Assembly (NCBI GenBank): GCA_030650425.1
Contig: JAUSED010000005.1
Location: 142,932 to 206,931, forward strand
Direction of reading: 5' to 3'
Length of the DNA: 64,000 bases
Source: Candidatus Omnitrophota bacterium
GTDB taxonomy: Bacteria > Omnitrophota > Gorgyraeia > Gygaellales > Profunditerraquicolaceae
Shown here: piece after piece, positions 65 to 21,000 of the stretch
How positions within the stretch are numbered: the first letter of the stretch is position 1
Layout: every line of letters starts with the position of its first letter
Program-made: the position numbers and the translations under genes
Notes under the pieces: model-generated
Seen by the model: the letters and a program-made list of their open reading frames with translations, nothing else
The model's database searches: none
What the model was told of the DNA's origin: nothing

Positions 65-3000
65 TTGAGAATGCCAGAATCGGAAGAAGGCATCGGGACC
101 GCGAATTTTATTATAACCAGCCTCTCATTTTTAATACAGGAATTGGTTGGAAAAGATAAATTTGCAGGCTGCGAGTTTTTGATCCGCTTTGTTAATGAAG
201 GAGATAATTTCGCAAAAACCTTCTTTTTCGGCGAATCTTCTAATGTAGAAAACCACCGCAATCTAATAATCCGTTATTCCGCCTCGCCGCTGGCCGATGA
301 GGAAAATAGAAACGACCTTTCAATCATAAGGCATAAAGAAAGCAAGGGTCTTGTTGAAATGATTCTAATGCGGTCATTAGAAAAAGGCCTTCTAAGCAAG
401 GAGGAGGTAAGATCATTCTTTGGTTATCTGCTTGAGATCTATAAACAGATAACTCTGGAAGCTCCTAAGGTTTTCGAAGTAATCAGCCTGTTGATTGATC
501 AAGATGCTATGATTCGGAATAATATTGATGTGCTCAAGGGTAGAATTCTTGATCTGATAAAAAATGAAGTTTGGGGGATTTATGGGAGATTTCACGCGTT
601 TAAATTTTTAAAAACAATTCTTACAAAAACGAAGTTTTTAACCAAAAATAATATTCTGGGAGCAATAGACTTTGTCAATAAGATTATTCTGCAGCACGGA
701 AGTGAAGTGTATAAAGTTTTTGAATCACTTGAGGACCTTTTTATCGCGGCACAGTTCTCTACAATGTCCGGCGGTGTCCTTGATTTTGAACGCTTAGATA
801 GACTCGCGAATGTTGGAAAGAGCAAGCTTTGGAAAGTTTACGCATCCTTAGCCAAAGCGCAGATTATCCCGCAAGAAAACACTAAGGATGTTGAAAACTT
901 ATTAACCGAAGCAATCCCTAAGCATATATATATACCCGGATACCCGCCTTATGTTCCTGAAGAAGCTTATGACGCCCTGATTGAATGGCAGGAAGCAGGG
1001 GCCTTAACTACTTCTAATATAGGGAGAATTGCGCAGATATTCAGGAATGTGGGAGACAGCGCGCATCAAGCAAAGATTGACGCAGGCCAGACTGGATTAT
1101 TCTTGGGTGCTTTCGGCCGTTTACGCGCCGTTAATGCGGCGAATCTTAATGAAATTGAGCGCGTCTTTATTTATTTTATAGAACAAGACTTGCAAAGGAA
1201 AGATAAAGGCCAGCTTCTTGAAAGTATAACAAACCTTATGGATGCAATAGATAGGCTGGTGGATCGTAAAGATGTGGATAGAAGCCTTGTGATGCCTGTT
1301 TATTTCAGCCAGCTTGAAGTTGTTAAAGATATTCTATGGCTGCATAAATTTTATCGAGATGGAAAATTTGGCGGTCTATTAGTTAAAAGTATTAAGGAAT
1401 ATAAAACAGGACAGAATCCTCAGGCAGAACTTTATGAAAATGTTCAACAGGATTTAATATATAGGCTTCAAGAATCTAAGTGGGTGCCGATTGATGGATT
1501 AAAAGTTTTGACTGTGCGCAGAATATTAATGAGCAGCCGCTTGGATTATGCTTTAGATAACTTTGGGCCAATACATCAAATATATCTTAACAACGGTCTT
1601 GACGGAAGGAAGACAGGAAATTCTCTGGATGACCGAGAGATTATGCGAGCTTGGGTCAGAATTGTGGAGCTGGCTTCTTTTGGAAAAGTTGAAGGCAGCG
1701 CTTTAATTTTTCGCATTGGCGATTCGGAAAGGCTAATCGTGAATTTCGTGAACGGCCAACCGCTGGAAGCGGTATATCCGGAAACTGTTAACGCCTCATT
1801 AAATCAAGCTATTCAGCTAAGGAAGAAATTGCTGATTAAGCGATTAGCAGGGGAGAACGAAGGATTTGAAAGCACTGCCTTGACCCGTTATTTGATACAG
1901 CTTGAGTTGTTACATCTGTCCGGTATTTTAAAAGGCCGCATTTTCTACCCTTCGATGGGTAACGATTATCTGCCCGCTTATTTCGGTACAGTTTTCGCGA
2001 CCAATCTGTATTCTGGATTGGGTGAGGACCTAGAGACGTACCTTGATGGTAAGAATTACGAAAAAGGCATGTTTTTATATGATTATTCGACACTAGCTCA
2101 GATTAAAGCAGACGTGGCTTTGGAGCCGGGATTTTCTCAGACATGGCAGGAGCAAGATACGGATATCCATGTCTTCTGGAAGAATAACTTTGATTTTAAC
2201 GCGTATCTGCCGCAAGCCGCAGCAGAAGGGCCTATGGACACAATAATCATTAAAGGAGTAACCTCTTGGTTAGGGTATTACATGGAAGAAAAAGCTACCT
2301 TGGGAATGACAATTGAACAGGCTATGCAGGGATTTTTTGGGCAGCTTAAGGAGTATTTAATAAAACCCGGCACAGCCATTGTTATTCTTGATTCCGAAGA
2401 TTTATGGATAGAAGATTTTCTCAAAACAACATACGGTTATCAATCTATAAATAAACTGTCCCAATTCAGGGCATTAGCCGAAGATCTTAAGCGCATACCC
2501 GTACGAGAAGAACGCCAATATCTCGGGAGAGTCAATACGCATGTGGGGCTTGTGCCAATAAAAATTCTTATAGCACCACAGTGGGATAATGGGAATAGTT
2601 CCATTAACAAAGTTGTAGAGCAAAAAGTTTCCTCGCCGCTGCAAAGAAACCAAGACGCTTTATCTAGCCCATTATCTAACAAGAAGTTGAGCAGAGGGGA
2701 CAGCGTCCGATTCAACAGCAGTGTAGACAGTTTATCCAGCCCATTATCCAGTAGGGAGTTACAAAACACTTCCGCCGCCTCGCCGGTTTCGAGAAAGAAA
2801 GAATTACAGAGGTTACTGCGGCAAGAAATCGCATTAATCAGCATAGGCGGGGCCTTTGTGGATATATTCTTCAATCAGGACGGGTCGGTATCAGAAAAAG
2901 CAGGCGGTTGCGAAGGTAATCTTGTAGTCAACTTTACAAGGATGGATAACAGAGCAAAAGCGCTTTTGGTTAGCAATCTGGGGGCTGATAAACACGGACT

Positions 3001-6000
3001 GTTTTTACGCGATTTGTATGGAAGAATCGGCATGAATTTGGCAGGGCTCTTTTATGAAAAAGGCCTGCCCACAGGCACTGTTGAAGTGAGGCGGGAATTT
3101 GACGGTCGCGGTAATGAAATTTCCCATAGATTTGATATAGACGATGGAGCATACCCTCAGCTTTCTGTTGGGAAAATTGTTTCATTAGAAAAAGTTTTTC
3201 AGAAGGCCAAATTCTTACATTTTGGTTTAACTGCATTATTTCCTGCAACCCCTGTTGCAAAGGCGGTAAAAAAGGCTGTTGAATATGCAGAGCAATATTC
3301 TCTTCTGGTTTATTTTGACCCTAATATCAGGATTTCTTCTTGGGTTAAGATGTTCGGTACTCATGAACTGGCGGCTAAGAAAATAATCGATACAGTCAAG
3401 GATACCCTCAGGTATGCGCATATTATTAAGATAAGCGATGAAGAGTTGTTTTTCTTGAACGGAACAGAAAATAACCATAGCGGCATAGAAGAAGAGATTT
3501 TTAAGTTTGTGAGTGAATACAAGGAGTTAAAGTGGGTTCTATTGCTTGTTACCTGCGGCGAAAGGGGAAGCGAGTATGTTTTTCGCGGCAGTGGCACTGA
3601 CAACAAGAGAGAAATTGCCGCGGGCCATATTGAGGTGTATAAAAAATGGCCTTTTATAAGCGCTGTAGGCGCCGGAGATTCATTCAATGCCGCGGTAATT
3701 TCACGTTTATATCAGCTGCTTAAAGAGAAAGAGCTAAGCCGTATGACAGAAAAAGAATTGATGGATATCTTGAACTTTGCTTCTAAGGTTGCGGCTAAGG
3801 TTGTATCACAGGAAGGCGCTGTGCTTGAAAGAGAATGGAGGGGTAGGAAAACATCCAGCCCTCTTGACCTAAACGAGCTTATAAATGATCAGCTCAATGA
3901 TGTTCTGTTTAAGGCGCAAACGTTAGCAGCATCCGGAGACCATATAACTGCCCTATGGTTTTTAATGAATACGGCTAATCTCAGCATTTTAATTAACAGC
4001 TATAAGGGCAATCCGAAAAATATCGAGAGAATCAAAACCGCCCTTGAATTAGCAAAAAACTTGAAAAAAGCCCAAGAAGAAGCCAATGGGATTCTAAGCA
4101 GAGGCGCTCAGGATGCAATCAATAAAAGAATCGCCTTGAATAGAGAGCGCGTAGAAAAACTTCTGATTCCGGTTACGGATATCAAAGACATCCGTCAATA
4201 TCTACCGTATTTCGGGACATATGCCGTGGCGGGCATGCGTATCGAGAAAGTAGTGCATGTTTACGCGCCTTCTGTTATTGACGATATCAGCGCGGTAATT
4301 TTTAGATACAGGCGGCCGAAAGTCGACAAGAATATTCTTCACTACGCGATTTTTGTATTGGATAAGCCTAAAGCTCCAAGCCACCAGTTAATCGCGCGAG
4401 CTTTTGTGGAGAAGAATTATCAATACCACAACGGAGGCTCTGTTAGCACAACTACTTTTGATAAAAAAAGGAATAGGCAGAACAAAATAGAGGTTAAGTC
4501 GAGCATGGAAAAAGGAATTGCGTTGTTTGTCTATGCAATGTTTCGCTATGGAGGAGAGGTATGGTTATCAGATATTTCCCGGTCTGATTCAGCTACGCGT
4601 ATGTATCAACGTATTAAAGAACGCATCGAGGAAGATTTATACCCGGGGTTATTGATTGAGTATTTTCTTTCTCCAAGAAGGTGGCGTATAAGTATTAATT
4701 CGAATAGCGAATGGCTGCCTCCTATAATTATTACTGAGATTCCTTATTCCCCAAATGATTTAGCCAGCAGCCCAGTGGTTCAAAAAAATATAGAGATAGC
4801 AGAAAGCGCCGCCTCGCCGGCGTCCCCAATTTCTTTTGGGAATAATTCTATAAAAGTAGAAGTTAATGATTTGATTAGAGCTATAGAAACCGCTCTTGGT
4901 TTTGAGGGGGAAATTGAATTTGACGCAGTTAAGGCCGCCATTAAAAGCGCAGATAGGCTTTCTGAGTTAGGCGTATTAGCTACAGAAGCTTTGCCCGTGT
5001 TAATTAAAGCCGCGAAAGAACAGCGTTTTGACGACGATGGTGTATTTTGCCGCGACCATTTTATCGCAGCCTTAATACGGATATCTCCTGTTGAGGAAAG
5101 AGTAGAGAATTGTTTGGCAGAAATTATTTTAAGTGACCCCAATGAATATTCAAGAAGCGCAGCTGCAAGGCAGTTAGTAGAAGGGCTACAAATTCCTTTT
5201 AATAGTTTGGCGAGATCTGCTTTAGAGAAAGGCGTTCAGGAGAAAAATTGGCGGATTTCTAACCCATGCAAAAAAGCTTTAGGCTTGCGTTCCAGTTCGC
5301 CTTTCAACTCAGGCCGTGACAAGCTTAATCCGTTTGTGATACTAACAAAAAGTAAGTTACGGGAGTTATCTATAACTAACCCTATGGCTTGGCATTACTT
5401 GCAAGCTAAGCGTATTGAGGACGGAATAGATGTTTATGTGAAGAATATTAGCAAAGCACCCGAATTTGCCAAAAGGTTTAATGAAATATTCAAGGAGGTT
5501 GAAGCAAAAAAAGATGAATTGCAGAAGCTTGGGTTAAGAGAACAAATAAGCGAGATTTATGAAATAATGTTAAGGGCTTTTCCTAGGTTAGTATATGAAA
5601 AAGGCTATTGTGTGTTTACCGCGGCTGGAATGGCAAGATCCCTGAGAAATATTGGGCACAAGGATATCGCAATATACAGAATAATAGCATTAACTCAATC
5701 GTTTGTAATTAAAGAAGCTGGAGAAGAAAGCGAGTATATTTATATCGACCATAGGGCAGAGCAATTTATTATAAGAGAACCTATAATAGAATCTATAATG
5801 GAACCTAGAGGTATGAAAGAGTTGTTGTGTTTAAGTTTACCTAGTATAGATAAAATTTCCAGTTCGCCGCTGAAAGAAATAGTTGGAGCGACGGTGGTGA
5901 CGCGAGGCGCCGCCTCGCCGGTTTTGGGAAAAATAGAACTATTTCTAATTTTAAATAGATTTGATTTGAATTTCGCGAATACTACTAAAATGCTTTATAT

Positions 6001-9000
6001 TACGGGTTACAAGCGTGGATTTGTTCTTGAAGGCAGTGGCAGCGATAAGCGAGTCTACAACCGCGGCATTATATGTTCTTTTAAAACGAGCAGCAATTCT
6101 TACAATGGAGCTAGTTATATTCAGGACAGCAAATATTTTTATGAAATTAAGAATATTTTCTTCTTGGGCAGGAGTCAGTGTAGGATACACCAAGAGTTCG
6201 TATTCGGTGAGGACAGAGATACTGGCTTTAATTCTTTTATTCTCGAGCTCCTCAATAAAAGCGGTAACGCTTTTATCTCCTCGCAGGTGATCAATAATAA
6301 TATTGGTGTCGATAAGGTATCGCATAGATTAAGAGCTAATTCTTTTAAGAACACCGGTTTTCCATTCCCTGCGGATTTTATTTTCAAAGGCAATTCCTTT
6401 GGGGGCTTTACTCAAGATACCCGAGCTTCTCCTGATGAGATTAATAGTAGTAGAAATAGCGGCTTTTTTAAAAGAAAGTGGTATAGTTATCATCCACTTG
6501 ATATCTTCGATCTTTTCCTCAAGGGTTTCCAGCAATTCCATAGTTTTATTATCCATCAAATACCTCCTGCTTTAGTAACCGAGATAAATATATCACATAG
6601 GCATAAAGGAGTCAATATTTATCTAGGAAGCTGTTTCCGTCCACCTGACGCCTCCGCCGCCTCACCGGTGGCGAGTGTAGTCAGTACGCAATATGACAGT
6701 GTAGTATGGGCGGAGAAGGTGGAAGAGGTATCCGGAAATCCGGTAGAGCGCTTAGCGCAGATTATCCAGATTGCGGCGCAGAATGATATACAAGCTATAA
6801 GAACCGGGCTTATCGGGCTGCTTAATCTATTAAGAAAACACAACCGGCTCTATCGCTATCAAAGCGCAAGGCTGCTTTCCCAATTAGCTAAAATAGAGTT
6901 TTATGAGAAAATACTGCGCTCTATCGGCGGAGGAAAACTGATTGGCTTAATTCATTTGATCCCCCTTGAAGAAAGATTTGCATTTGAGGTCCCCGATTTT
7001 ATCGTTCTTCCTCCCGAGCTCAGCAAAGAAGCGGAAGAACGGATTTTTGATTTACTGGAGGAAGGCGTTTATATCTTAAGGAGCAGTTCATTCTTTGAAG
7101 ATACAGAAGGTTTTCCGATACGCGGCGCGTATGAGTCGGTATTTTTTGTCAAAAACCCCCAACAAAATGAATATCGCAAGGGATATGATTTAGAAGTTTT
7201 TAGGAACGTGAGGGTAAAAGTAAACAGAAGCTTTAGAGACTTTAAATACGCTGAAGATAGGCTATGCTTATTGTTAGAGCGGGTTCCGGGCCATACGGTG
7301 ACACTTAAGATTGGTTATGCTAATCGCAGCTGCTATTTTCCGTCGTTTTCAGGTGTTACTAAATATAATCCCTATAAACTAAGCCACATAGTATCGGAAA
7401 TAAATCCCGGTTTGAATACCCCCACGGTTAAAGGAGGATATCACCGGTTCGTCGATAAGGATACTGAAAGCGGAGAAATAAAGGTTCCAGAAGTTTCCCG
7501 GACTTTGCGGCTTTATGGGACTGGGGATGTAATAGATATTTCACGTAACAAGTTAATCAGCGCAGACATAGTGAATAACACCTTGTCATTATGGGTAGAT
7601 GATTCAGATAGTTATAAAGATACATCTTTGATTAAAGGCGTCCATGAAAAATTAAGCGCTATTATCTTGAGCTTAAAAGAAGATTCAGGCTATAGGGAAT
7701 TAGAGTGGTCGTTTGATTCCGGAAAGCTTTATGTCTATCAGAATACGCCAAGTAAAATATGCCGTTCTTTGTCAAGAATAAAGGTAGATATACCAGTTGT
7801 CCCTGAAGAGCGCCTGATTGTCTCTTGCGCCGGTGTCTTTGGCCACGGCGAATTCACCGGCCCCTTAGTTTGGGTTAAAGACAGAGATGAAATTATGTTG
7901 AAACGAGAGGAATGCAAGCGCATAGCCAGAGAGTTTCCCCGAGGGTATATTTTAATAGGCAGCCGTTATTTGTTTATGGATCCAGACATGGAATACGCAA
8001 CCAGCCAATATTTTGATTCAGCTTTAGGCAGACTCAAAGGCTGGGTAGACACAAGCGGCTTGCCGCTTTCCATTTGCGCGCATTACGCGGAGGGATTAGT
8101 TGACAAGAATATTATAGTTATTTCTCAGTCAGCTATCGATTACACTAAACTGGAGCGCTTCTGTGATCAGCAATTAAAAACCGGTATTTTCGATGATTAT
8201 TATGAGATACGTTATAGCGAGGCTTTATTCCGCATCGCCGCCAATGCTCTGCAAGATAGGGGCATACTGTATCTGGCCAGCTCTCCTGGCCCCGCCGCTT
8301 CGCCGCTTAACAACGATGATCAATTTAATGCCAACATGCCAAAATCAAGAGAAGATGGCGAATTAAAGGGGTATTTCGTCCTGGCGGTACAAAACACCAG
8401 AAATGTAGACACTTTACGTAACTCATCGACTATCAGCGAGTTATGTAACAAATACGATAAGGACAATATTACACAAACCAATACCGCCGCCTCGCCGGTT
8501 TCGGAAAATAGGAAGGGACAATTCTATCGTAACTGTTCATCGGCCATGGAGATAGACAGAAACGGTCTGAAGGATTTCGACGGGTTAAAAGTTATAGATA
8601 ATGAGGAAGGGATTTTTCTGGTTTCGAATCGTCTTGGTGTCAGAATCAAAGCTCAACGAAAGTCAATCGAATTTGAATTTATTTCCTCTCCGCTGTTGTC
8701 AACCGATGTACGCCTGCGAAGTGTACAATGGGGTAGCTCTCCGGTAGAAAATAGTAATTTTGAAAAAGCATATTTTGGTATTTTAAGAGAAATTTTCGGC
8801 AGTGAAAATAAAAAAATATGTTTCCATAGCACTGTAATCTTGGCTTTATATCTTGAAAGAAGCAGGCATAAAATAAAGATACTACCTTCCAAAGAAATTC
8901 CCCCTGTTCCTTGTTTCAGTGAGACATACAGCGAGATAAAAATAGGAGTTTTTGTAAATAAAATAACGGGTAGTTATTCTTTACAGCATTGGTTAGAATT

Positions 9001-12000
9001 TACCAGTTTAGGGAGAAGATTTTATTTAGATGCGGTCTATAATTCATTATGGGGCAATGGCCGAGACAGGATTATTTACGAAGAGATATATCCATGCTTG
9101 TTAGAAAATAAATACAGTCTTTACCCAATCCACGATATGGAAAAATTTTTACATAGCGGTGATTCTCAAATAAGAGAGCTAATGGTTGCAAAAGGAGAGG
9201 CTATATTGCGAGATGAGTGGAGGGTGTTTGGAACAGGTGAGATAGCGCTTCTAGATTTTCTGCCTCGATTATCGAACGGAGTAAATATCGCAAAAGCTGT
9301 TAGAAAGCTTATCGATGCATCTGTATCTTTGGAAGAGAATGCCAATGGTTTTATTCTAAATAAGGAAACTTACAATGCCTCGCCGCTGGCTTCTTGTAAC
9401 TTGGAAAAAATAGAGACGGTTAACTTTTTGAGTTATAGGCGAAAGATGTCTTTACGGCAGAAAGTGCTAAATGAGAATCGAGCTGCTTCACCCATGGGTA
9501 TTCCTAATAAGGTCATAACGAAAGAGCGGTTTGATGACCTCCTTAAAATTAAAAATTATGCTAATCCTCACGGTGAATATAAGAAGGTCTGGTATCCAGC
9601 TTCTGCTTCTGATGTGGGATTAGCCCTGTATGTTACTGATGGAGACAAATTTATCCTTTCAAATTTTGAGCATTTTGGAAATATGGATGATTTCAAAAAG
9701 TTTCCTGATGATGAGAAAGAAAAGCATTATTTCTTAAGGCGCACACGTAGCTGGCTTGAAGAAGTTCACTATGAAAACAGAATAAGCGCGCAGATTTTCT
9801 CTGAGTTAGAAGCGTTGGGCATAGATTACAATGATGTAGAAAAGTCAAAGATTAATGATGCCACTTTTAAATTGGTATTTAATTGGCGGCATCCTTTAGG
9901 CAATAGAACTAAGGAAAGAGTTATCGAATATAGAAATATACCCGTTCAAAGGCCGCCGTATTATCCGGAAGAGAAAGTAGATATCATAATAATTAAAGCA
10001 TTAAACGGATTCAATTTAGATCCAGAGGGCCTGTTTTTTATTTTAAATCCAGATGGGCTTATAATCAGCGATTTCTGTTTCAGCGATGTTTGGTATGAAA
10101 GAGTAAAAAATAGTCCTATTGCATTGAAGCTTAACAATAAATTTGGGTATAGTGCTAGGCATATCTGGTGGGCATTAGGAGAGGCGATTGAACTAGCAAG
10201 AGGCGAGGATGTATTTTTGTACAAGAACACCCCCGCCGCCTCGCCGGTTTCGGATGAAATAGGAGGACAGCCCCGTAGTAAGAGCAATTTTGACAATGAA
10301 TTTGCAGGGGCTGACCCTAAAGCTTTTTCAGGAGTAGTTATTTATGCGGGAGGATTATTTTCTTTTATAAGAGAGGACGGCGAAAAGGTCCACCGCAATA
10401 ATAATAAAAGCAATAATATAAAGAAGTGTCCAGTTATCCATAATGGGTTATTTCTTTCCCTTGATTACCCGGAGGAATATAACAAGGGCCAAGAGCCCCG
10501 CCAGGATATAGAAAGCCAGAAAGTTCATCGTTATTCTTTTCCCAATCCTACAAGAAATGTAAGCCATGGGATTTTACCCGAAGCAGTCGGGACAAATACG
10601 CCTACCACTAAGGACCCAAGCAATATCTTTGCTCCGTCCAGAAAGAAGTCAGATAGAGTGTCTCATTCTTGGCCAGATAACATACACCCCTATTCTATTG
10701 TCTTCAGGAATTTTGTCAAGAGTTTCCCCTTACGGAAATCCGCCGCCTCGCCGGTGGAAAATCGATATACGGATACATGGCTCAATGGATTACCTCTATT
10801 GCAGATCTTGGGAATCTTTGGAGGGATTAAGCGGCAACCGTTCTACTTCGATATGAAGGGCCGTATCGTACAGGCATACGGATGGGATGGCTTGCTAGAT
10901 GCTGTCTTGACGGCTAGGGATTCAGGGGGCGATACGTCCAGATACATAGAGAATAATGACTATATCAAATATATTGACTATTTAATCAGAGAAAGCCGCT
11001 GGGATACAAGCGCCGCTGATAATTTTAGCAAGTTACTGTTGAGTATAAAGGGCGAAGACGCATTCATAACTTTTAGTCAGGAAGTTCTGTCGGGGCTTTT
11101 GACGATAGTGGAAAAACATATTGAGGCCTATGTTGAAAGTCGTCATCTTTTCCGCGCACCGCAGGAGACCGTGGTCCAGCGGCCGGAATCTTATCGTACG
11201 GTGAAAAATATTTATAGAACGGAAACAGTTTCCTTCACAGAATGGAAACAGCTTTCATCTCTTTTGATGGCGGTATCAGAATCTAATCGTATTGGCGCGC
11301 TTATCCTATTGCTCGGGAACCAATGGGCGGCTAATTCCGCCTCGCCGGTGACGCTTGATGAAAGAAGAAACGTATTATTCCTTATCCCTATGGAGATGAT
11401 ACGCAGTGCTGGTAATAATAAGGAGGTTTCCGTTAAGTTGGGCTGGCCGTATGGACTTAAGGGCTTCCAGCAATACTCTATGTACTTTATCCATGGTTTC
11501 GGGAGTAATCCGCAAGATAATAATACCAGTATGATTTCCCAGTGGATAGAGCGCAATATTGGAAAAGTCCCGGTCTCGCGTAAGCAAAACAGCCTTGCGG
11601 GATTTGGCGATTGCTATAACCCTGCCATTAACCGCTTCAGCTTGTTTCAGTTCTTTGAGAGTAACGCAGTCAAAGCCTGCTTTGCGCAGCAGGTTTTCGG
11701 TTTCTTTCCAGACACAATGGTCAAGCAGGAACATAAGATTACAGGTTTAATGGGAATGTTGAAGTTCCTCCGCGAAATGAATTTCTTCTTCATCGAGGAA
11801 TTGATTGGCAAAGGCTATGCAGGCAAATATGTCTTCTACTTTCAGATCAGGATAGAATTTGTCAGAACAGATATCTTTAGGGGAATATCCGCTAGCCAAA
11901 AGCTCCATAACCATAGAAACAGCTATACGGGTGCCCTTAATATGGGGTTTACCATGGAGTACGTGTGGATCAATAGAAATTCTTTCCAGCAACCTTTTGT

Positions 12001-15000
12001 TCATCGATTAATTCTCCTGTTAGTAGTATTTAACATCTTTGGTAAGGAAAGTCAAGGTGAATTTATAATTAAACGCGAAGATCCGGAAGGCCCGGGGGAT
12101 CTACAGGATCTGGATCCGGGGGCATATGACTTAATTCTAAATAAGTATCGTGTCTCCGGAATTGCCACCTCTTGGGGATTAAGAGATATCCGAAGCGCAG
12201 ACATTATACAAGATATCTATTATGCATTAAAAATAATAGAAGATTTAGGCCGTAGATTAGGGTTATCAGGCAAGATGATTGATGGGGCACATAAGGTTTT
12301 TGCGCAAGTAATCTTTGCAGCCAGCCCGTTGGCCGCCGCCTCGCCGTCCTCGAGCCGTGTCTTAAGAGATGGCTCGAGGACCCCGAGCGAAGTGAGGGGG
12401 CAGGTGGATGAAAATCAGGCTAGCTCGCCGGTTAGAGAAGAGGAAGCTGCTGTCAGACTAGAAATTGCCAAAAAGCTTTGTCATAGCTTAAATAACGCTG
12501 TCAGTGGTTTTTATGCTTGGTTAACTTATTTGGAGCGGAAAACCCCTCATTTTGATAGAGGAAAAGGAAATACCCTTCTTGGGAAGATTAACGATTACAA
12601 TGAGCTGGTAAGCGAATCGGAGGAATTACTACAAAATCCGGATAAATTAAAGGAAACAGTTAATAAATTGGATACCCTAGTAAACGAAATTATAGAAATA
12701 TTGCCCAAGTTACGTAACTTTTATGATAACCAGGAGTTAACAGGAAGCATTGCATTAATTGGAGAAATAATTTCGGATGAATTACCAGAAAAACCGGTAA
12801 ATTTAAGCGAGGTTTTGCCCTGGATATTTCGCAGCGGGACGTTTTATCATGATTTTATGATAATAGATTACAAAAACTGCCTTGGGAAAGACGCATTTGT
12901 TTTTGTCAGCAAAGATAAACTATGGATTGTATTCGATAATTTATTGATGAATTCCATACAGGCTTTCCAGAAGTTTGATGTTATAAATAAAGAAGATAGA
13001 AGGGTTACGGTGGAGTTGGGTGAAGAAAGAGATTATTATACGGTTGTTTATTCCGATAACGGCCCGGGGATACCCGAAGATTTATTAAGCAACATCTTTG
13101 ATCCCTACGTAACAACTAAGGTCGGAGAACCCATATCGGGGTTGGGGCTTGCCATATGTAAGGAGATAGTCGCTAAGGCAAACGGCAGCATTACTGTAAA
13201 AAGCAAACAAGGGGAGGGCGCTACTTTTACTGTTTATCTGCCTAAAGAAACAAATGTTTTCGGAAAAGAAGGCGCCGCCTCGCCGCTGGCTGGTGAAGAA
13301 AATATAGGCCGGGAATTACAAGAGGCATTTGATAAAGCCGCATTGGATTTATTGTATTGGTTTTGCGGCATTAAATATCTTCCTTATGATTGGAAAATTC
13401 GTGCTTATATAAGGCCTTTAAGGCGAGGGGATTTACAGTTTTTGCTTGAAGAAAACTTCCCTACATTACTTTTTGATTTAAGGATAAATTGGTTTGAAGA
13501 AGTGATTGGCTATCGTCTTTACCCGGAAAGCGCAGGAATAAGAGAAAAAGAGATTATGCGGGGATTAAGAAAAGAGGTTTTTGATTGGTTCTTAAATAAT
13601 AGGCCGGCTGTTTTGGAAGAAGAGTTTGAAGGAATAAAAATAAAAGAATTTATTGAAGCGGCTATGACATCGACAGAGCAGCATTTACAATACTTAGGCC
13701 AAATGCTTGAGTTTATCAAAGGAGGCAAGCGGCAATCATTCGCTCCTTTTATGCAAAAAACGTTTAAAGAATTTCTTGAGAGAAGGATTAAAATTCTTAG
13801 ATGCCTGCGTCATATTGATCCAGCGTTTGTAATACACAAACTGCCTTTGTATGAGGAAAGAGTTAAAGAGATAGAAAATGAAGATATTGAGAGCGAATTA
13901 GAAGAGGCAAGAAAAGCGGGCAAAGAGGTTAAGGTTATAATAAAAGAAATCGCCAGGTATGAAGATACAGGCAGGCCATCTAGTCTTAGGGTTGAATATG
14001 AAGGCGAGATTGGCTTTGTGCGCATAAGAAACAGCGGTTTTAGCTCCTGGGCGCTTTCTCAACACCCTAAAGCTATTATTGGGGAAGAGGTTTACGCAAG
14101 GGTAATTGCTGTTAGGCCGCTTGAGTTTGGATTAATCAAAGAAAAAATCGATATTCCAAGAGTAGATACGAGGATTGTTTACAGGACAGACGCGGCTGGA
14201 ACAGGAGATAATAGGTTTAAGGAAGCCTTTAATAAGGCCGCGGAACAAAAAGCCAAAAAAGCTAAAAAAGGCCCATCCTCGGGTTCTCCGCTTGAGGAAG
14301 AATTCAATTTTTTGCGGCTACCGGTTAAACAAATAACAAATAAATGGCTGGAGTATATAAGAACAAGTTTTAGTGAAGACGAAGCCGCAAGTTCAAAGAT
14401 GAAGGGCGCGCTTAATGATTTAATTCAGCAGCTCGAAGCTTTAGGCGCAGAGCCTTTTGATAAGACAACAGAAGTAAGTATAGGTGATTTATATATAGAT
14501 ACCCTCTCCGGCACTATTACAAAAATAACAGATGTGAGAATAGGGCTTACCTGCGAGACGGATAGAATATACCCTATGCGCAAAGAGAAAAGAGAGCTGG
14601 CTATGACGGGTGGTAAGTTCTTATTAAGAAGAAGCGGTGTTTCTAGAGAGCAGGCAGAGTTAGCCTATCGGTCTCAAAGAGCAGAGAAAATTATCAAGGA
14701 TATCGAATTCGCTGTAGCAGTTAGTAACCACAAAATGGCTGTCGATTTTATAGAGGAATTAAGAAGGGATTATTCTGATATTGTTAGCTGTGCTAAATTA
14801 TCTGAACTGGATAGGAAAGTCGGCACTGTTCATCCAGACACACCTACTCCCGCTGCGCACAAGGCTTCTTCGTCAATTAAGAACAGCCTTACACTTTACA
14901 CATTAAACATTGCACAAACCATTCCCGTCGCCTCGCCGGTAGCGAAAATAAGATTGCTGGGAGATTATCCTTTAGCTAAAAATTCTTCCGGCAGCATTGT

Positions 15001-18000
15001 TTCGGTTAATCTTGAGGCAATTTTTAAGAATTTGGTATCGCGGGTAATCAGAATCGTGCCTGGTGAGGATAAAGCCAATGAAAGTAATATGGTATCAAAT
15101 GGGTCTAATGGATATTCTTCTTGTAATTTATTAGCCCGCAACAACTCGATTTCATCGGGGATTAGCACTTCAAGGAGCTCAGTTAGTTTATTGGCATCTT
15201 TGTTAATCTCTTTGGCAGGGTATTCTTTCTTGCGGCGGAGTAGAAACCTTATTTCTAATAGCGTAGTTAAAGAAATACAGCCTTTGATTTCCTTTGTTTC
15301 GACGCGGTTGATAATTTCAAAAGGGGCCTTCCAGAGATTCTTATTAGTAGCGGTTTCTGTTTCTTTGAGCAGCCAGTTAGCAATGACATCCGTATCAAGC
15401 AATACCGTTTTAATCTCTTTCATTGGGTTGGCAATAAATTTATTTTACCTTACCGCAGAGACTAAGGCGTTGGCCTTTGATAAAACCAGTGGAGGTTTTT
15501 CCTGCAGGAATAACCCCCTTGTACTTACCAAGCAATTCTCCAGCGGTGTTCGTCTTGCTAATTTTGGAAGTTTGCGCTTCCGTTCCCAGTACCCTCAGAG
15601 CTTCTCTCAGTGTAGTCATATCTCATCACCTCTAACAAAGGTTAACATAATCTCAAGACGCCGTCAAGATAATTCCGCCGCCGCCTCGCCGGTTTCAAAA
15701 GAAGCAGAAACAACTAAAACATTACTTTCCTTCCCAATTGCCGACTTGGATAAAGTTTTAAAGCTGGGCATAAAGTTGTTTGATTTTGGGTGTGGGCCTA
15801 TTGCCGGATGCCGCGGAGAATGGGGTTCTACTATTGTAAAACATTATCCCTATATAAACTATTATGGTATAGATGCGCAATTTTGTCTTGAGCGGCAATT
15901 GCGCCTGCCTTTTAGAAGACTCTTAAGTCTATTGGGAATACGCTTGGCAAGAGAGAGGATGAAATTTGAAATACAGTCCTATTTTGAACCGTTGCCGCAA
16001 GAATGGGGTAAGGCCGACATTATCATCTTAAATTCTCCTGAAATCACAGAGGATTATTTGGCGCGTATTAATAAGGGAGAGGTGGCGAAGGCGTTCTTTA
16101 AAAATCTCAAAGAAGGGGGAATAGGTTTGATTCTTTTTGAATCACATCTTTATTCATCGATAAATTCACTAATTACATATATATCTAGAGAGGCTGTGGC
16201 AGGCGGCCGAATGTATAAATCTTTCTCTATGGAATTTGGCGAAGAGAACATTAACCAAACAAATATCCCTAAGAATTACTATCCTGAGAAATTGACTGCC
16301 TATAGAAATTGGCAATTTGCCCAGAGAAATAACCGTCCTGATTTTGAGATTAGTTTTATCCAGGTTAGGAAATCGCTAGTAAATGGTAACGCTCCCCAAA
16401 GGGACACCTCTGCTACTCAAGGCGCCGCCTGCACTGAGCGAGCGCAAGCGAGTCGAGGCGCCTCGCCGCTAGTCTTGGAAGATAAGGTAAATGAAGAGTT
16501 AATAATATTATACGTGTTAAAAGATGAAGTATCGTCGCTTAGCGATAAACAAAAATATAACTTCGTTAAAAACAGGCTTTCCCTTGAGAAGAGAATAAGT
16601 TTATCTATCCCCGCCGCCTCGCCGGTGCAAGACAAAAACAGAATGTTATATGGAGGAAAACAGGCAAATTTATTAGGTCAGAAATATCTTGAAGGTATTT
16701 CCTTAGGCGAAGGCGTTACCATTGAAGTTATGGCTGCCGAAGAAGAGAATATTTTTACAACCGATGATTTTATAGATTTTCTTGTATTTAACAACGAATT
16801 AGTCAGTCAGATAGAGCATGTTTTGAAAGAATCCGGCAAGATTATGGAAGAAGAAATTCAAGGTTTGTTGTCGCAATTCGAGTTTCCTAAATCGCTCGAA
16901 GAGAAAGCGAATATTATCCAAAGCCATTTTGCTAAAGATGTTCTGCTTCTTGCCCGCGGTTCAGGGCAGAAAGAGGGCTCCAAAGAAGCAAGCCGCTCAG
17001 GAGTTTCTTTAAGTAAAAAAATTGACACTGAAACCTCTCTTTTTGAAGTCCTCCAGGAAATCTATCTACACGAACTAAAACAGGTATATCTTAAAGAGAG
17101 GCAGTCAATTTTGAAAAATCTTCTGGCGGTGACAGTTGTGCCGTACATAGATTTTGATTGCGGCATCATTGGCTCTTATTCCAAGAAAGATAACTCAACG
17201 ATTATTGATGTTGTCGTTGGCTCTTTAGAGACGGCCGTAGACCCCGCGAAACTGGGTTTAACCACTAACGAACGCCAGGTGCACGCCACAGCCCTGACTA
17301 TCAAGGTTCAAGATGGCAGGATTTTTGTTGCTAAAGAATATAACCTTAGGCCGCAGGAGATTATATATAAAGGTAAACACTATTTTCGCGAAAAGGCGAC
17401 CAAAGAGATATGGGAAGCAATGACAGATGTAATAGATGCAGAAAACGTGAAATGTATTCGCTGCCCGTTAAATAAAGACGAAATTTTAACCATTGATAAG
17501 CTAACGCGCCTGGCGGCTGAAGAATCCGATGCAGATATTTTATGGGAAATAGGCAAGATCGGCCGTATCCACGAACCTGCTTATGAGCTTTATATCCTTC
17601 AGGCAGATCCTTTAGTGCCTGTCGGATTTTATCAGCCTATCCCTGATAATTTAGAAAACATTATGGCGCGAAGTTATATTTCCCACGGTAATATACGCCT
17701 TGAGCGGGCAGTTGTGATGCTGGTAGAGGCGGGAGCTAAGGCAAGTTTTGTGGAAGCGGCCGCAGAAATCTTGGCTGAGGCAAGGATTCCTTTTATTAAA
17801 GTTCAGCGTCAGGCAGCCTGCCTTGATTTAAGCTTAGCGCACCGGGCAGCCGTAGAATGGGCAAATGTTTTGATTGATCCTGCGGCGCCATCCAAGTGGC
17901 CGCATACGCAGGTAAATTTGAGGGATTTTATTCGTGAGCATAATCATTCATTGTTTTTTGCCGATGGCAGGGTTTCCCAATTGGCTTTTGCCGGCGGCAG

Positions 18001-21000
18001 GGCTTTTCAGGAGCCGCTTCGGCGCTTAAACTATTGGCGGTTCGGAGGTGGCGTCTATCTAAGCGAAGAGTTGGTCGGTTTTATAGCTAATGACAGAGAA
18101 GCGATTATGTTCGGCCCAGCGCAGGATAAGAAGGTAACGGATTGTTATAGCAGAAACGGCCTTAGCCATTATTTTGGCAGCCATATTACCTTTTTAAGCT
18201 ATTTATTTGATGACGAGCTTAGAAATGGCTTTCTTTCTTTTGAGCCTACGGACAAAGAGCAAATGGATATAGTTTTTGGATACGCGATGGATTATTTGCT
18301 GCAAAGGTGCAAGAAAAGAGAGCCTCTTATGCCGGCATTGGAAGAATTACTTTCTAAGATACGGTTTGAGGAAAAGCAGAGGCTTAAAGAGGCAGGCGGT
18401 TATTATTCCTCCTGGGATAAAGAAAAAATACAAACCCTCATTGCAGAACATCCGCAGGCAGAAGCGCAATTATCCGCGTTAAAAGAAGAGATCAATTGGC
18501 TTAGGCGTCTTATTGCCCTTCCATTTTATCCAAATTACAGCCAGAGCCATATTACCAGAGCAGTGTTAAAGATTTTTGATGGCACCCGCGGTTTTGAGTG
18601 GAGATTTGGCGAAGAAATACAAGAAGCACATCCAAGGCCGCAAGGGCCGTTGAGGATTTTAATTGTTGATAGAACCCTTATAACGAGTCTCTACCTTAAG
18701 TCTTTTATTGAGGCGAATTTTAGTAAAGCAACAGTTGAAGCAATATATAATTGTTATGACGCGGCTGAAAAAATACCGTTTTTTGTACCGGATATTATCA
18801 TCTTAGATGGTAGGACCTCACACGATGATTATGGGCACGAATTAATGAGGAAGTATAACCAATTATCAAACGCGCCGCGGCTGATTTTAATTAGCGCCTG
18901 GGGTTTAGGCGACCTCTACCATGATACACAAGAATTGCGGAACGCTTATGCAAAAATACAGGTCTTAGGTTTTTACTCCCGCAGTGAAAACGAAGAAAAA
19001 ATTATCCCCTGGTTTAAACAAGTAGAAGATGAGATCAAACCAGCAAAAGAAGAAAGCCAAACCGCTGAAAAGAAGAAAGTAACTATATCTAAGGTGCTTT
19101 TTATTCATTATTCTAGCGAATTATTGAGAAATATTAGACTATATACTAAAAAGGCGCCTTTTGAAATCCTGACAGCTGATACAGAGGTAATGGCGGTTGG
19201 CATGATTAAAAAGCATCGTCCTGATATATTAGTCTATGACGTTAATTTTACACTTGAATCCCAAGCGCCTATAATCGGAGAATATATTAGGGTAAAAGGA
19301 GAAAGCGCTTATGTGATTCCTTGGTCAGCTGCGGAGTATTCCTTGAATGAAATCCGTCAGAGGCCAGGATGGAAAAAAATATGCGCACAGATAAAATTCC
19401 TTGATCCTGTGGTGATAAATTCAGATGCCGCGTTTTCGCGCTCCGGAGAAGGCGTAGATTATGTTATGGATGAAATCTTTAGGATAGTTTCAGGCCTGAC
19501 CGGGATTTCATCCAGCCCCTTAGCCAGCCCCGCCGCCTCGCCGGTCAGAGAAGAGGAAGCTGCTGTCAGATTAGAAATTGCCAAAAAGCTTTGTCATAGT
19601 TTAAATAACGCCGCCAGTGGTTTTTATGCTTGGTTAACTTATTTGGAGCGGAAAACCCCTCATTTTGATAGAGGAAAAGGAGATACCCTTCTTGGGAAGA
19701 TTAACGATTACAATGAGCTGGTAAGCGAATCGGAGGAATTACTACAAAATCCGGATAAATTAAAAGAAACAGTTAATAAATTGGATACCCTAGTAAACGA
19801 AATTAAAGAAATATTGCCCAAGCTACGTAACTTTTATGATAGTCAGGAGTTACTAGGGAGCATTGTATTAATTGGAGAAATAATTTCGGATGAATTACCA
19901 GAAAAACCGGTAAATTTAAGCGAGGTTTTGCCTTGGATATTTCGCAGCGGGACCTACTATCATGATTTTATGAAAATAGATTACAAAAACTGCCTTGGGA
20001 AAGACGCATTTGTTTTTGTCAGCAAAGATAAACTCTGGATTGTATTCGATAATTTATTGATGAATTCCATACAGGCTTTCCGAAAGTTTCATACTCTAAA
20101 GAAGGAAGATAGAAGGGTTACGGTGGAGCTGGGTGAAGAGAGAGATTATTATACGGTTGTTTATTCCGATAACGGCCCGGGGATACCCGAAGATTTATTA
20201 AGCAATATCTTTGATCCCTACGTAACAACTAAGGTCGGCGAACCCATATCGGGGTTGGGGCTTGCCATATGTAAGGAGATAGTCGTTAAGGCAAACGGCA
20301 GCATTACTGTAAAAAGCAAACAAGGGGAGGGCGCTACTTTTACTGTTTATCTGCCTAAAGAAACAAATGTTTTCGGAAAAGAAGGCGCCGCCTCGCCGCT
20401 GGCTGGCGAAGAAAATATAGGCCGGGAATTACAAGAGGCATTTGATAAAGCCGCGGAACAAAAAGCCAAAAAACCTAAAAAAGGCCCATCCTCGGGTTCT
20501 CCTATAGAAGATATCACCGCCTCCCCAAGAGGCGGAGCGGATAAATCCCCAAGAATTCTTGATCCTGACTATAAAAAATCTTCGCGTTTTATTGAAATCG
20601 ACCCGGAATATTTTCTGCCTGACACTCAATCCGGATTTTGGCTAATCGGGAAAAATGCTAAAGACATTTTTACAACTTGCACCGATATTGTATTCTTAAC
20701 TAAAGAAGAAAGAATATTCCTCGCTCATCTTCAGATTAATCCCAAACACCTTGAGAGCACAAACGAAAGGCAAAGCAAAGAACTGTTAGAGCGGCTGGTA
20801 GAGGACTGGAAAACCTATGGAGATAAGGACGAAAAAGGCCAAGGAGTCAGCACTTTTAATCCTCGAGAAATATTTAACGCGACAACTAAAGCGCTGTTAC
20901 TGAATAAATATCCCGCAAGAGAACCTTTTACTAATTGTTTAAGAGATTTTTTATTAGAGAAGGGGCTGGGTAAAGATAATATAAAAATAGATTTTGCAGC

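Follow-up and report, generated by a model that had tools for sequence, protein, structure and literature searches.

The 64-kb stretch of Candidatus Omnitrophota DNA analysed here (contig JAUSED010000005.1; hereafter the window) carries on its plus strand a single open reading frame (ORF) of 9,434 codons with zero stops (positions 65-28369) and, within this giant gene but on the minus strand, two small genes of the DUF433 and DUF5615 families. The reading that best accounts for our results, and to which we give a probability of roughly 0.7, is that these two genes form a self-contained VapBC-like toxin-antitoxin (TA) cassette, which is nested codon for codon antisense in the multi-module giant gene, fills one slot between two junction motifs and has had the stops of the plus frame purged by selection. 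The coordinates of the features are collected in Table 1.

Pfam profile searches bore out the two gene assignments made in the initial annotation of this DNA. The 85-residue protein matched DUF433 (PF04255) over the full profile (1-56 of 56; E 4.2e-22, 78.2 bits for a cut-off of 23.6), and the 119-residue protein matched DUF5615 (PF18480) over positions 3-109 of 110 (E 1.7e-19, 70.2 bits for a cut-off of 23.8), with weaker matches below the cut-offs to PIN_10 (24.9 bits, just under) and Mut7-C (17.9 bits). DUF433-PIN pairs are validated TA systems (PMC3834315; PMC5499597). The order of the genes is antitoxin first, and promoter-like and Shine-Dalgarno (SD) signals were found upstream of the first gene only, where the initial annotation had placed them. 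The gap of 12 nt that it had described between the two genes is also present and, being a multiple of three, keeps the giant frame. By family and architecture, the pair is a VapBC-type type II TA bicistron, and, as VapBC10 and VapBC45 suggest, the 85- and 119-residue proteins would act as antitoxin and toxin, respectively.

As previously noted, both genes lie antisense to the giant ORF in codon register (offset 0), next to a junction motif; the overlap extends over about 620 nt. In this register, the stops of the plus strand are the reverse complements of TTA, CTA and TCA. None of these three codons is used in either TA gene of the window; TTA makes up 34% of the leucine codons in a set of 25 ordinary window genes. 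Other codons ending in A (GTA, ATA, GGA, AAA, GAA and CAA) occur in the TA genes at or above their host frequency. Synonymous recoding with the host codon usage was expected to create 7.5 stops in the plus frame opposite the DUF5615 gene and 3.8 opposite the DUF433 gene, and among 20,000 runs the plus frame stayed open in none of the DUF5615 recodings and in 0.9% of those of DUF433. The simplest reading of this avoidance is that translation of the plus strand has to continue through the cassette. If the giant gene must be translated through it, stops in its frame would be removed by selection, leaving the TA genes without TTA, CTA and TCA and confining insertions and deletions to threes.

A search with both proteins yielded five relatives of the DUF5615 protein (71-83% identity) and one unrelated DUF433 protein of high GC. 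The contigs of the five relatives (L119, L120, L122, L123 and L124) come from groundwater and other metagenomes (ENA, JGI, Logan), and all of them carry a DUF433 gene, a short spacer and a DUF5615 gene, with no TTA, CTA or TCA in either. The codon-aligned antisense frame is free of stops over each whole contig (309-446 codons), whereas the other two antisense frames hold 12-33 stops per contig. The junction core, seen in this orientation as its reverse complement CGGCGA, follows the toxin gene in 5/5 contigs and also lies upstream of the promoter in 4/5, contig L123 ending earlier. A metagenome scan further identified a 20.9-kb contig, L126 (Ga0315283_10001149), in which the cassette lies antisense in an ORF that is open over at least 6,250 codons and contains 20 junction motifs. 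As L122 is identical to part of L126, the independent copies number six, window included, and in all six aligned copies CCGGCGAGGCGG, the equivalent of the junction, is found 25-45 nt past the stop of the DUF5615 gene. Only when antisense can an embedded gene retain in-frame stops of its own and leave the host frame unbroken, which would explain why the copies found all have this orientation.

Comparison of the six copies showed the same avoidance at larger scale, as TTA or CTA is used at 0 of 154 leucine codons and TCA at 0 of 75 serine codons, while the codon has changed in 14 of the 23 columns that hold leucine in every aligned sequence. All insertions and deletions between copies are multiples of three, including those in the intercistronic spacer and in the stretch from the toxin stop to the junction, neither of which codes for a TA protein. 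Pairwise Nei-Gojobori estimates of the ratio of nonsynonymous to synonymous substitution (dN/dS) were then compared among the copies, whose synonymous divergence (pS) ranges from 0.16 to 0.70. Read in their own frames, the DUF5615 genes gave values of 0.10-0.29 and the DUF433 genes of 0.02-0.11, and the identical DNA read in the giant frame gave 1.5-5.3. These results demonstrate that the TA proteins are under purifying selection and that the amino acids of the giant protein at the cassette (11351-12055; the peptide includes ...SAGNNKEVSVK... and ...SAGNNKEVSVKLGWPYGLK...) are not constrained. Selection thus acts on both strands, at the protein level for the TA frames and as avoidance of stops and indels in threes for the giant frame. 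Eight residues of the toxin (D5, E11, E13, E28, E33, T52, D54 and D56) are invariant in the six homologues.

The expression signals are conserved in most copies. The promoter-like site is kept in five of the six independent copies (window, L119, L120, L122 and L123) and has diverged in L124. At the SD position, AGGAGG or AGGAGA is found in the window, L119, L120 and L122 and GGGAGG in L123, and L124 has again diverged.

The codon usage of the TA genes differs from that of the ordinary genes of the window beyond the three missing codons. Codons of the NCG type are depleted (CCG 6% vs 42%, GCG 16% vs 31%, TCG 0% vs 15%) and CGA is enriched (13% vs 1%), which suggests that this usage is foreign to the host. 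A simple codon-usage frame scorer flagged the cassette only in part, because the antisense constraint distorts its codon usage.

The cassette behaves as a discrete unit. In blastn comparisons of the window with L119, L120, L122/L126, L123 and L124, similarity (70-82% identity) is limited to the shared core, which begins at junction J11 and ends a little upstream of the -35 element. Between L119 and L126, the homology covers 827 nt at 90% identity and extends exactly from junction to junction, with none beyond. At the protein level, blastp of the 9,434-residue ORF of the window against the 6,250-residue ORF of L126 aligned the cassette region only, with 57% identity in the unconstrained frame. 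Wherever the flanks could be compared, the DNA beyond the junctions is non-homologous. The cassette is therefore probably a mobile unit, bounded by junctions, that the giant gene reads as an unconstrained spacer; it would move by recombination at the junction repeats. The initial annotation, whose reading of a TA bicistron stands, had overlooked both the stop-free frame kept by selection and the recurrence of the cassette between the same junction motifs in otherwise unrelated giant ORFs.

Table 1. Features of the embedded TA cassette, its surroundings and the two sister cassettes (positions in the window)
Feature	Positions	Strand	Basis or remark
Conserved cassette core (promoter, SD, DUF433, spacer, DUF5615, junction)	11337-12060	-	blastn and alignment
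Junction motif TCCGCCTCGCCGGTG (SASPV in the giant frame)	11336-11350	+	conserved edge of the cassette on the toxin-gene side
DUF5615 / COG4634-type PIN-like putative toxin gene, 119 aa	11375-11734	-	Pfam DUF5615
Intercistronic spacer, 12 nt	11735-11746	-	12 nt in five copies, 15 nt in L124 (called genes)
DUF433 / COG2442 putative antitoxin gene, 85 aa	11747-12004	-	Pfam DUF433
Shine-Dalgarno AGGAGA, 8 nt before the DUF433 ATG	12013-12018	-	read from the sequence
Promoter-like TTGACT-16 nt-TTAAAT	12028-12055	-	TTGACT 12050-12055, TTAAAT 12028-12033; putative function
Window-specific 280-nt stretch, core to next junction, with the palindrome cluster	12056-12334	+	absent from all other copies
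Junction motif GCCGCCTCGCCGTCC (AASPS)	12335-12349	+	degenerate copy before it, 12317-12331 (AASPL)
36-nt near-palindrome/hairpin, 11-bp perfect arms	12346-12381		GTCCTCGAGCC 12346-12356, GGCTCGAGGAC 12371-12381; outside the conserved cassette
Sister cassette between junctions: TTGACT...TATATT, AGGAGG, 75-aa ORF (6329-6556), PIN gene (5951-6325)	5909-6656	-	Pfam PIN, E 6e-15
Sister cassette between junctions: TTGACG promoter-like hexamer beside the junction, SD, 59-aa ORF (15440-15619), PIN gene (14965-15423)	14932-15680	-	Pfam PIN, E 1.2e-12

Among the other explanations, the one that survives best, unlikely as we hold it to be, is that the cassette is not an addiction module and is kept mainly since it controls the giant gene, either through antisense RNA and the convergent promoter of the cassette or through the PIN-like RNase or the DNA-binding DUF433 protein, the possible routes being transcriptional interference, double-stranded RNA or cleavage of the giant mRNA. 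The cassette promoter does point head-on into the giant gene, all three cassettes embedded in this gene encode PIN-type RNases, and the DUF433 antitoxin of VapBC10 is a transcriptional activator and not a repressor (PMC3834315). However, the same cassette is found at unrelated positions in otherwise unrelated giant ORFs, so a mobile selfish module fits better than a dedicated regulator, and no conserved target sequence was found outside the cassette.

A little less probable again is that the plus frame is not translated through the cassette at all, the giant ORF being several genes or a non-coding array, and that the absence of stops reflects a constraint at the DNA or RNA level or a codon bias of the cassette family. 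Such a view would agree with the lack of detectable homologues or domains over most of the giant ORF, with the dN/dS above 1 of the plus frame over the cassette and with the distinct, NCG-depleted codon usage. It is difficult to reconcile with the pattern of avoidance itself, as the missing codons are just the three reverse complements of stops, other codons ending in A being normal, and as the codon-aligned antisense frame alone is open. Indels in multiples of three also occur where the DNA is non-coding for the TA genes, and on either side the frame runs on into in-frame junction motifs. We know of no non-translational constraint that is frame-specific for stop triplets.

It is very improbable that the TA genes are decaying, unexpressed relics of an old insertion and that only the giant protein matters. 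No terminator is evident downstream of the toxin gene and no SD before its ATG, but both ORFs match their families over the full length, both genes are intact in six independent copies with dN/dS of 0.02-0.29 at pS up to 0.7, and the promoter-like and SD sequences are conserved in most copies. A cloning construct or an assembly artefact, suggested by the common restriction sites clustered at 12082-12128 as in a polylinker, can practically be dismissed, since neither the DNA of 12040-12420 nor the toxin protein had any similarity in 72,556 plasmid records, the restriction sites lie within an in-frame, stop-free stretch, and the cassette recurs in natural metagenomes from four sources with 70-82% nucleotide and 71-83% toxin protein identity.

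The nested TA cassette thus remains the preferred reading, and it suggests the following course of events. Transcription of the minus strand from the sigma-70-like promoter would lead to synthesis of the DUF433 winged-helix antitoxin and then of the DUF5615/COG4634 PIN-like nuclease toxin, and the antitoxin would bind within the conserved interval between the -35 element and the SD. Translation of the giant gene through the cassette would add about 235 residues of unconstrained, dispensable spacer peptide. The cassette would persist as an addiction module, as TA cassettes in chromosomal integron arrays do, and may incidentally guard the repeat-rich giant gene from deletion. The PIN cassette at 14932-15680, for instance, lies between the 97%-identical kinase modules that start at 12424 and 19537 and would be lost if these recombined.

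Several points weigh against this scheme. The addiction or anti-deletion role and the mobility by recombination at junctions are parts of it that we infer. The promoter is a match to the consensus that a strict scanner did not call, because the -10 element has no A at position 2. A structure model of the toxin (AlphaFold, 6 sequences) reached a pLDDT of 46.5, too poor to place the residues in a PIN-like fold, and sequence searches of the PDB returned no relative. The five comparison contigs span no more than about 1 kb each, so that the giant ORF is deduced there from the 309-446 stop-free codons and the junction motifs, and L126 is the single long independent contig found. No integrase or recombinase domain was detected among the scanned ORFs of the 64-kb window.

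The region upstream of the cassette had drawn attention for its palindromes, which were proposed, together with an inverted repeat, to be autoregulatory operators of the TA operon. The cluster described for 12061-12130 is partly confirmed, as CCCGGG (12091), GGATCC (12112) and CATATG (12123) do lie there, accompanied by TTATAA, TAATTA and TCCGGA (6 palindromes in 70 nt vs 1.1 expected), whereas the two GATATC sites lie outside it, at 12185 and 12212. The palindromes extend over 12063-12227, and a density of ten six-bp palindromes in 170 nt is reached by only 0.15% of sequence windows. The inverted repeat is real and stronger than described, with perfect arms of 11 bp instead of 9 bp; the predicted hairpin has a folding energy of -40.9 kcal/mol (z = -5). 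It lies about 290 nt past the -35 element, beyond the 12335 junction, in a mini-segment of 84 nt (junctions 12335 and 12419) directly upstream of one of the two 97%-identical histidine-kinase modules. Strong hairpins are few in the giant ORF; another one is located at junction 5914 (z = -3.1).

The operator role is not supported by the comparison, in which homology with all other copies ends at 12060. In these copies, a different low-complexity sequence lies between the promoter and the upstream junction, and the window-specific stretch gave no homologue in protein, plasmid and local searches. Because neither the palindromes nor the hairpin belongs to the conserved cassette, a role of operator is unlikely for both. 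If DUF433 binds as VapB10 does, the conserved interval between the -35 element and the SD is a likelier binding site than the palindromes; the alignment shows in it a weak repeat of the TTTG-N4-CAAA type only. A terminator-like hairpin followed by a T-run was also noted on the giant-gene strand at 11672-11697 (+), within the antisense toxin gene. It probably occurs by chance, because the count of such sites equals the expectation from shuffled sequences and the stem is weaker in the homologues.

The giant ORF contains two further antisense cassettes of the PIN type, each set between junctions (Table 1). They share a layout consisting of a junction, a TTGAC(T/G) promoter-like hexamer, an SD, a small ORF, a PIN gene and a junction. 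The cassette at 5909-6656 is also codon-aligned antisense, with 0.095% of its recodings free of stops, and its PIN gene matches the NCBIfam VapC models below their cut-offs.

The junction motif is 14-16 nt long, GCCGCCTCGCCGGT or AASPV in translation, and separates the modules of the giant gene. It may serve as a site of recombination, as a linker or as a site of processing. Its core CTCGCCG occurs 26 times in the giant ORF, always on the plus strand and in one shared frame, and the majority of these copies have the longer form (C)CGCCGCCTCGCCGGT, translated as AASPV, ASPL, SSPL or similar. In the remaining 35.6 kb of the window, CTCGCCG is found once on the plus strand and seven times on the minus strand. 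In the plus frame of the giant ORF, the domain search recognized a few stretches only, namely PfkB, HATPase_c (twice) and Response_reg (once). Among 5.8 billion proteins, the plus frame of 10745-12418 had no homologue at E 1e-3, and the kinase module at 12425-13345 (plus frame) had no relative at the strict cut-off of E 1e-20. The sense-coded modules thus appear either to be extremely divergent or to belong to a poorly sampled lineage. Outside the giant ORF, the DNA of the window is that of an ordinary chromosome, with genes for an ABC sugar transporter, ribonucleotide reductase, MnmG, glutamine synthetase III, glutamate synthase and an ammonium transporter.

A model in which the junctions are sites of the integron attC type was considered and rejected, as the junction is a direct motif on one strand with no general RNA or DNA structure; no integrase is encoded by the scanned ORFs of the window. 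Windows of 90 nt centred on the junctions gave a mean z of -0.15 for the minimum free energy, equal to that of controls. Rfam searches at the gathering thresholds found nothing in the window or in L126, and a scan of viral contigs was empty. When one genome per species was searched with a 19-nt junction pattern, the matches were mainly chance matches in high-GC genomes, and the only relevant one among the matches listed was L050 (36.7% GC), from a Candidatus Omnitrophota chromosome (CP070797.1). There, the whole 8 kb is open on one strand and the open frame carries AASPV, SASPV and SSPL motifs; antisense genes were looked for in these 8 kb and none was convincing. Conservation of the junction motif as DNA thus extends to other metagenomes and to a chromosome of Omnitrophota.

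Other repeats accompany the junctions. The two histidine-kinase modules of the giant ORF, at 12424-12723 and 19537-19836 (+), are 97% identical over 300 nt and lie 7.1 kb apart; they share further stretches (14222-14298 and 20435-20511), and one PIN cassette lies between the duplicates. A 62-nt mini-segment forming a double junction (SSPL-KEIVGATVV...-AASPV) is present at 5861-5922 (+), near the first PIN cassette, and is repeated with 79% identity at 28097-28158 (+), near the end of the giant ORF. In L126, an in-frame repeat of about 120 nt that reads SSPLADEGSRARLSRYKKAGEGVPSALIGASQARGASPL recurs almost unchanged at six or more junctions (residues ~1043-5935 of the giant ORF), and a second type of repeat, SSPLVDTHDAMHTTLYESLPASPLE, occurs twice. 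The antisense ORFs of L126 other than the cassette had no Pfam match. In L119, the slot adjoining the TA cassette holds an antisense DUF7718 gene (987-1304, +; E 2.8e-30), which is stop-free in the long opposite frame.

The two-gene operon is of an ordinary type. The VapBC10 system of Synechocystis PCC 6803 (ssr2962/slr1767) is a PIN-COG2442 type II TA system in which the toxin is neutralised by an antitoxin that also binds the promoter of the operon (PMC3834315), and it likewise has a small DUF433/COG2442 gene upstream of a PIN-type gene in a bicistron. Growth arrest by the toxin and its neutralisation in a complex with a labile antitoxin have been demonstrated for VapBC10 only (PMC3834315). 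In contrast to the pair described here, which is nested in another gene, VapBC10 is a free-standing chromosomal operon; its toxin has a PIN domain, whereas ours is of the DUF5615/COG4634 type of the Mut7-C group and is known here from its sequence. Predicted TA pairs of DUF433 with PIN_10 or COG4634 include VapB45 (Rv2018) of M. tuberculosis (Matelska et al. 2017, PMC5499597; Makarova et al. 2009, PMC2701414). They combine the same two families, the toxin of the present pair being near the PIN_10 cut-off, but are located in defence islands or ordinary operons, and none has been reported antisense in a long ORF or purged of antisense stops.

The arrangement has counterparts in other kinds of arrays and insertions. 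TA cassettes of the chromosomal (super)integrons of Vibrio, reportedly the subject of work by Rowe-Magnus in 2003 and Szekeres in 2007, are reported to stabilise the array against deletion. They too are small promoter-bearing TA modules, flanked by short repeated sites and set in a long array that is rich in repeats. Here, however, the array is one continuous reading frame and the cassettes are stop-free on the opposite strand, and the junction is a linear, in-frame motif of 14-16 nt that is not attC-like, with no integrase nearby. Selfish palindromic elements of Rickettsia, attributed to Ogata and colleagues in 2000, are reportedly inserted in-frame in protein genes; they are said to be 100-150 bp long and not genes themselves. 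In both cases, mobile DNA is tolerated in ORFs, the frame stays open and a dispensable peptide is added, but the cassette described here is an operon of about 725 bp whose two genes, encoded on the opposite strand, are under purifying selection.

As to the host gene, giant multi-domain ORFs called Archaeovorins have been described in Omnitrophota (10.1101/2023.11.21.568195; 10.64898/2026.06.07.730766), and some proteomic support exists for giant ORFs of this phylum (10.1101/2023.11.21.568195). By their wording, neither of these two papers deals with antisense genes embedded in the ORFs or with a junction motif. The ORF of the window resembles Archaeovorins in being very long, in mixing enzyme and signalling domains (kinase, HATPase_c) and in containing much sequence that cannot be annotated, but with 9,434 residues it is well under the published threshold of 30,000. 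The nesting of a TA operon antisense in a giant gene, with both strands constrained, has not been previously described.

Long antiparallel overlaps of genes are rare and disputed in bacteria (10.1101/724807), and an overlap of about 620 nt comprising two genes, with selection that differs measurably between the strands in six independent sequences, provides a clean natural test case. As stops are purged even where the peptide is unconstrained, the cassette supplies indirect genetic evidence that the giant ORF is read as one frame. Parts of the giant proteins would then be antisense shadows of other genes, which may explain the implausible predictions of transmembrane segments or localisation and the stretches impossible to annotate that have been reported for these proteins. 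It is possible, at somewhat less than even odds, that the giant ORFs of this lineage are in general in-frame cassette arrays, whose modules, including promoter-bearing operons of the opposite strand, would be swapped between genomes by recombination at the GCCGCCTCGCCGGT (AASPV) junction under the sole rule that one frame stays open; the TA cassettes would then be resident selfish or stabilising elements, and a sizeable part of the annotated giant protein would be read-through of antisense genes. The finding points to a modular, junction-based building and reshuffling of giant genes, in which TA cassettes may play the role known from chromosomal integron arrays.

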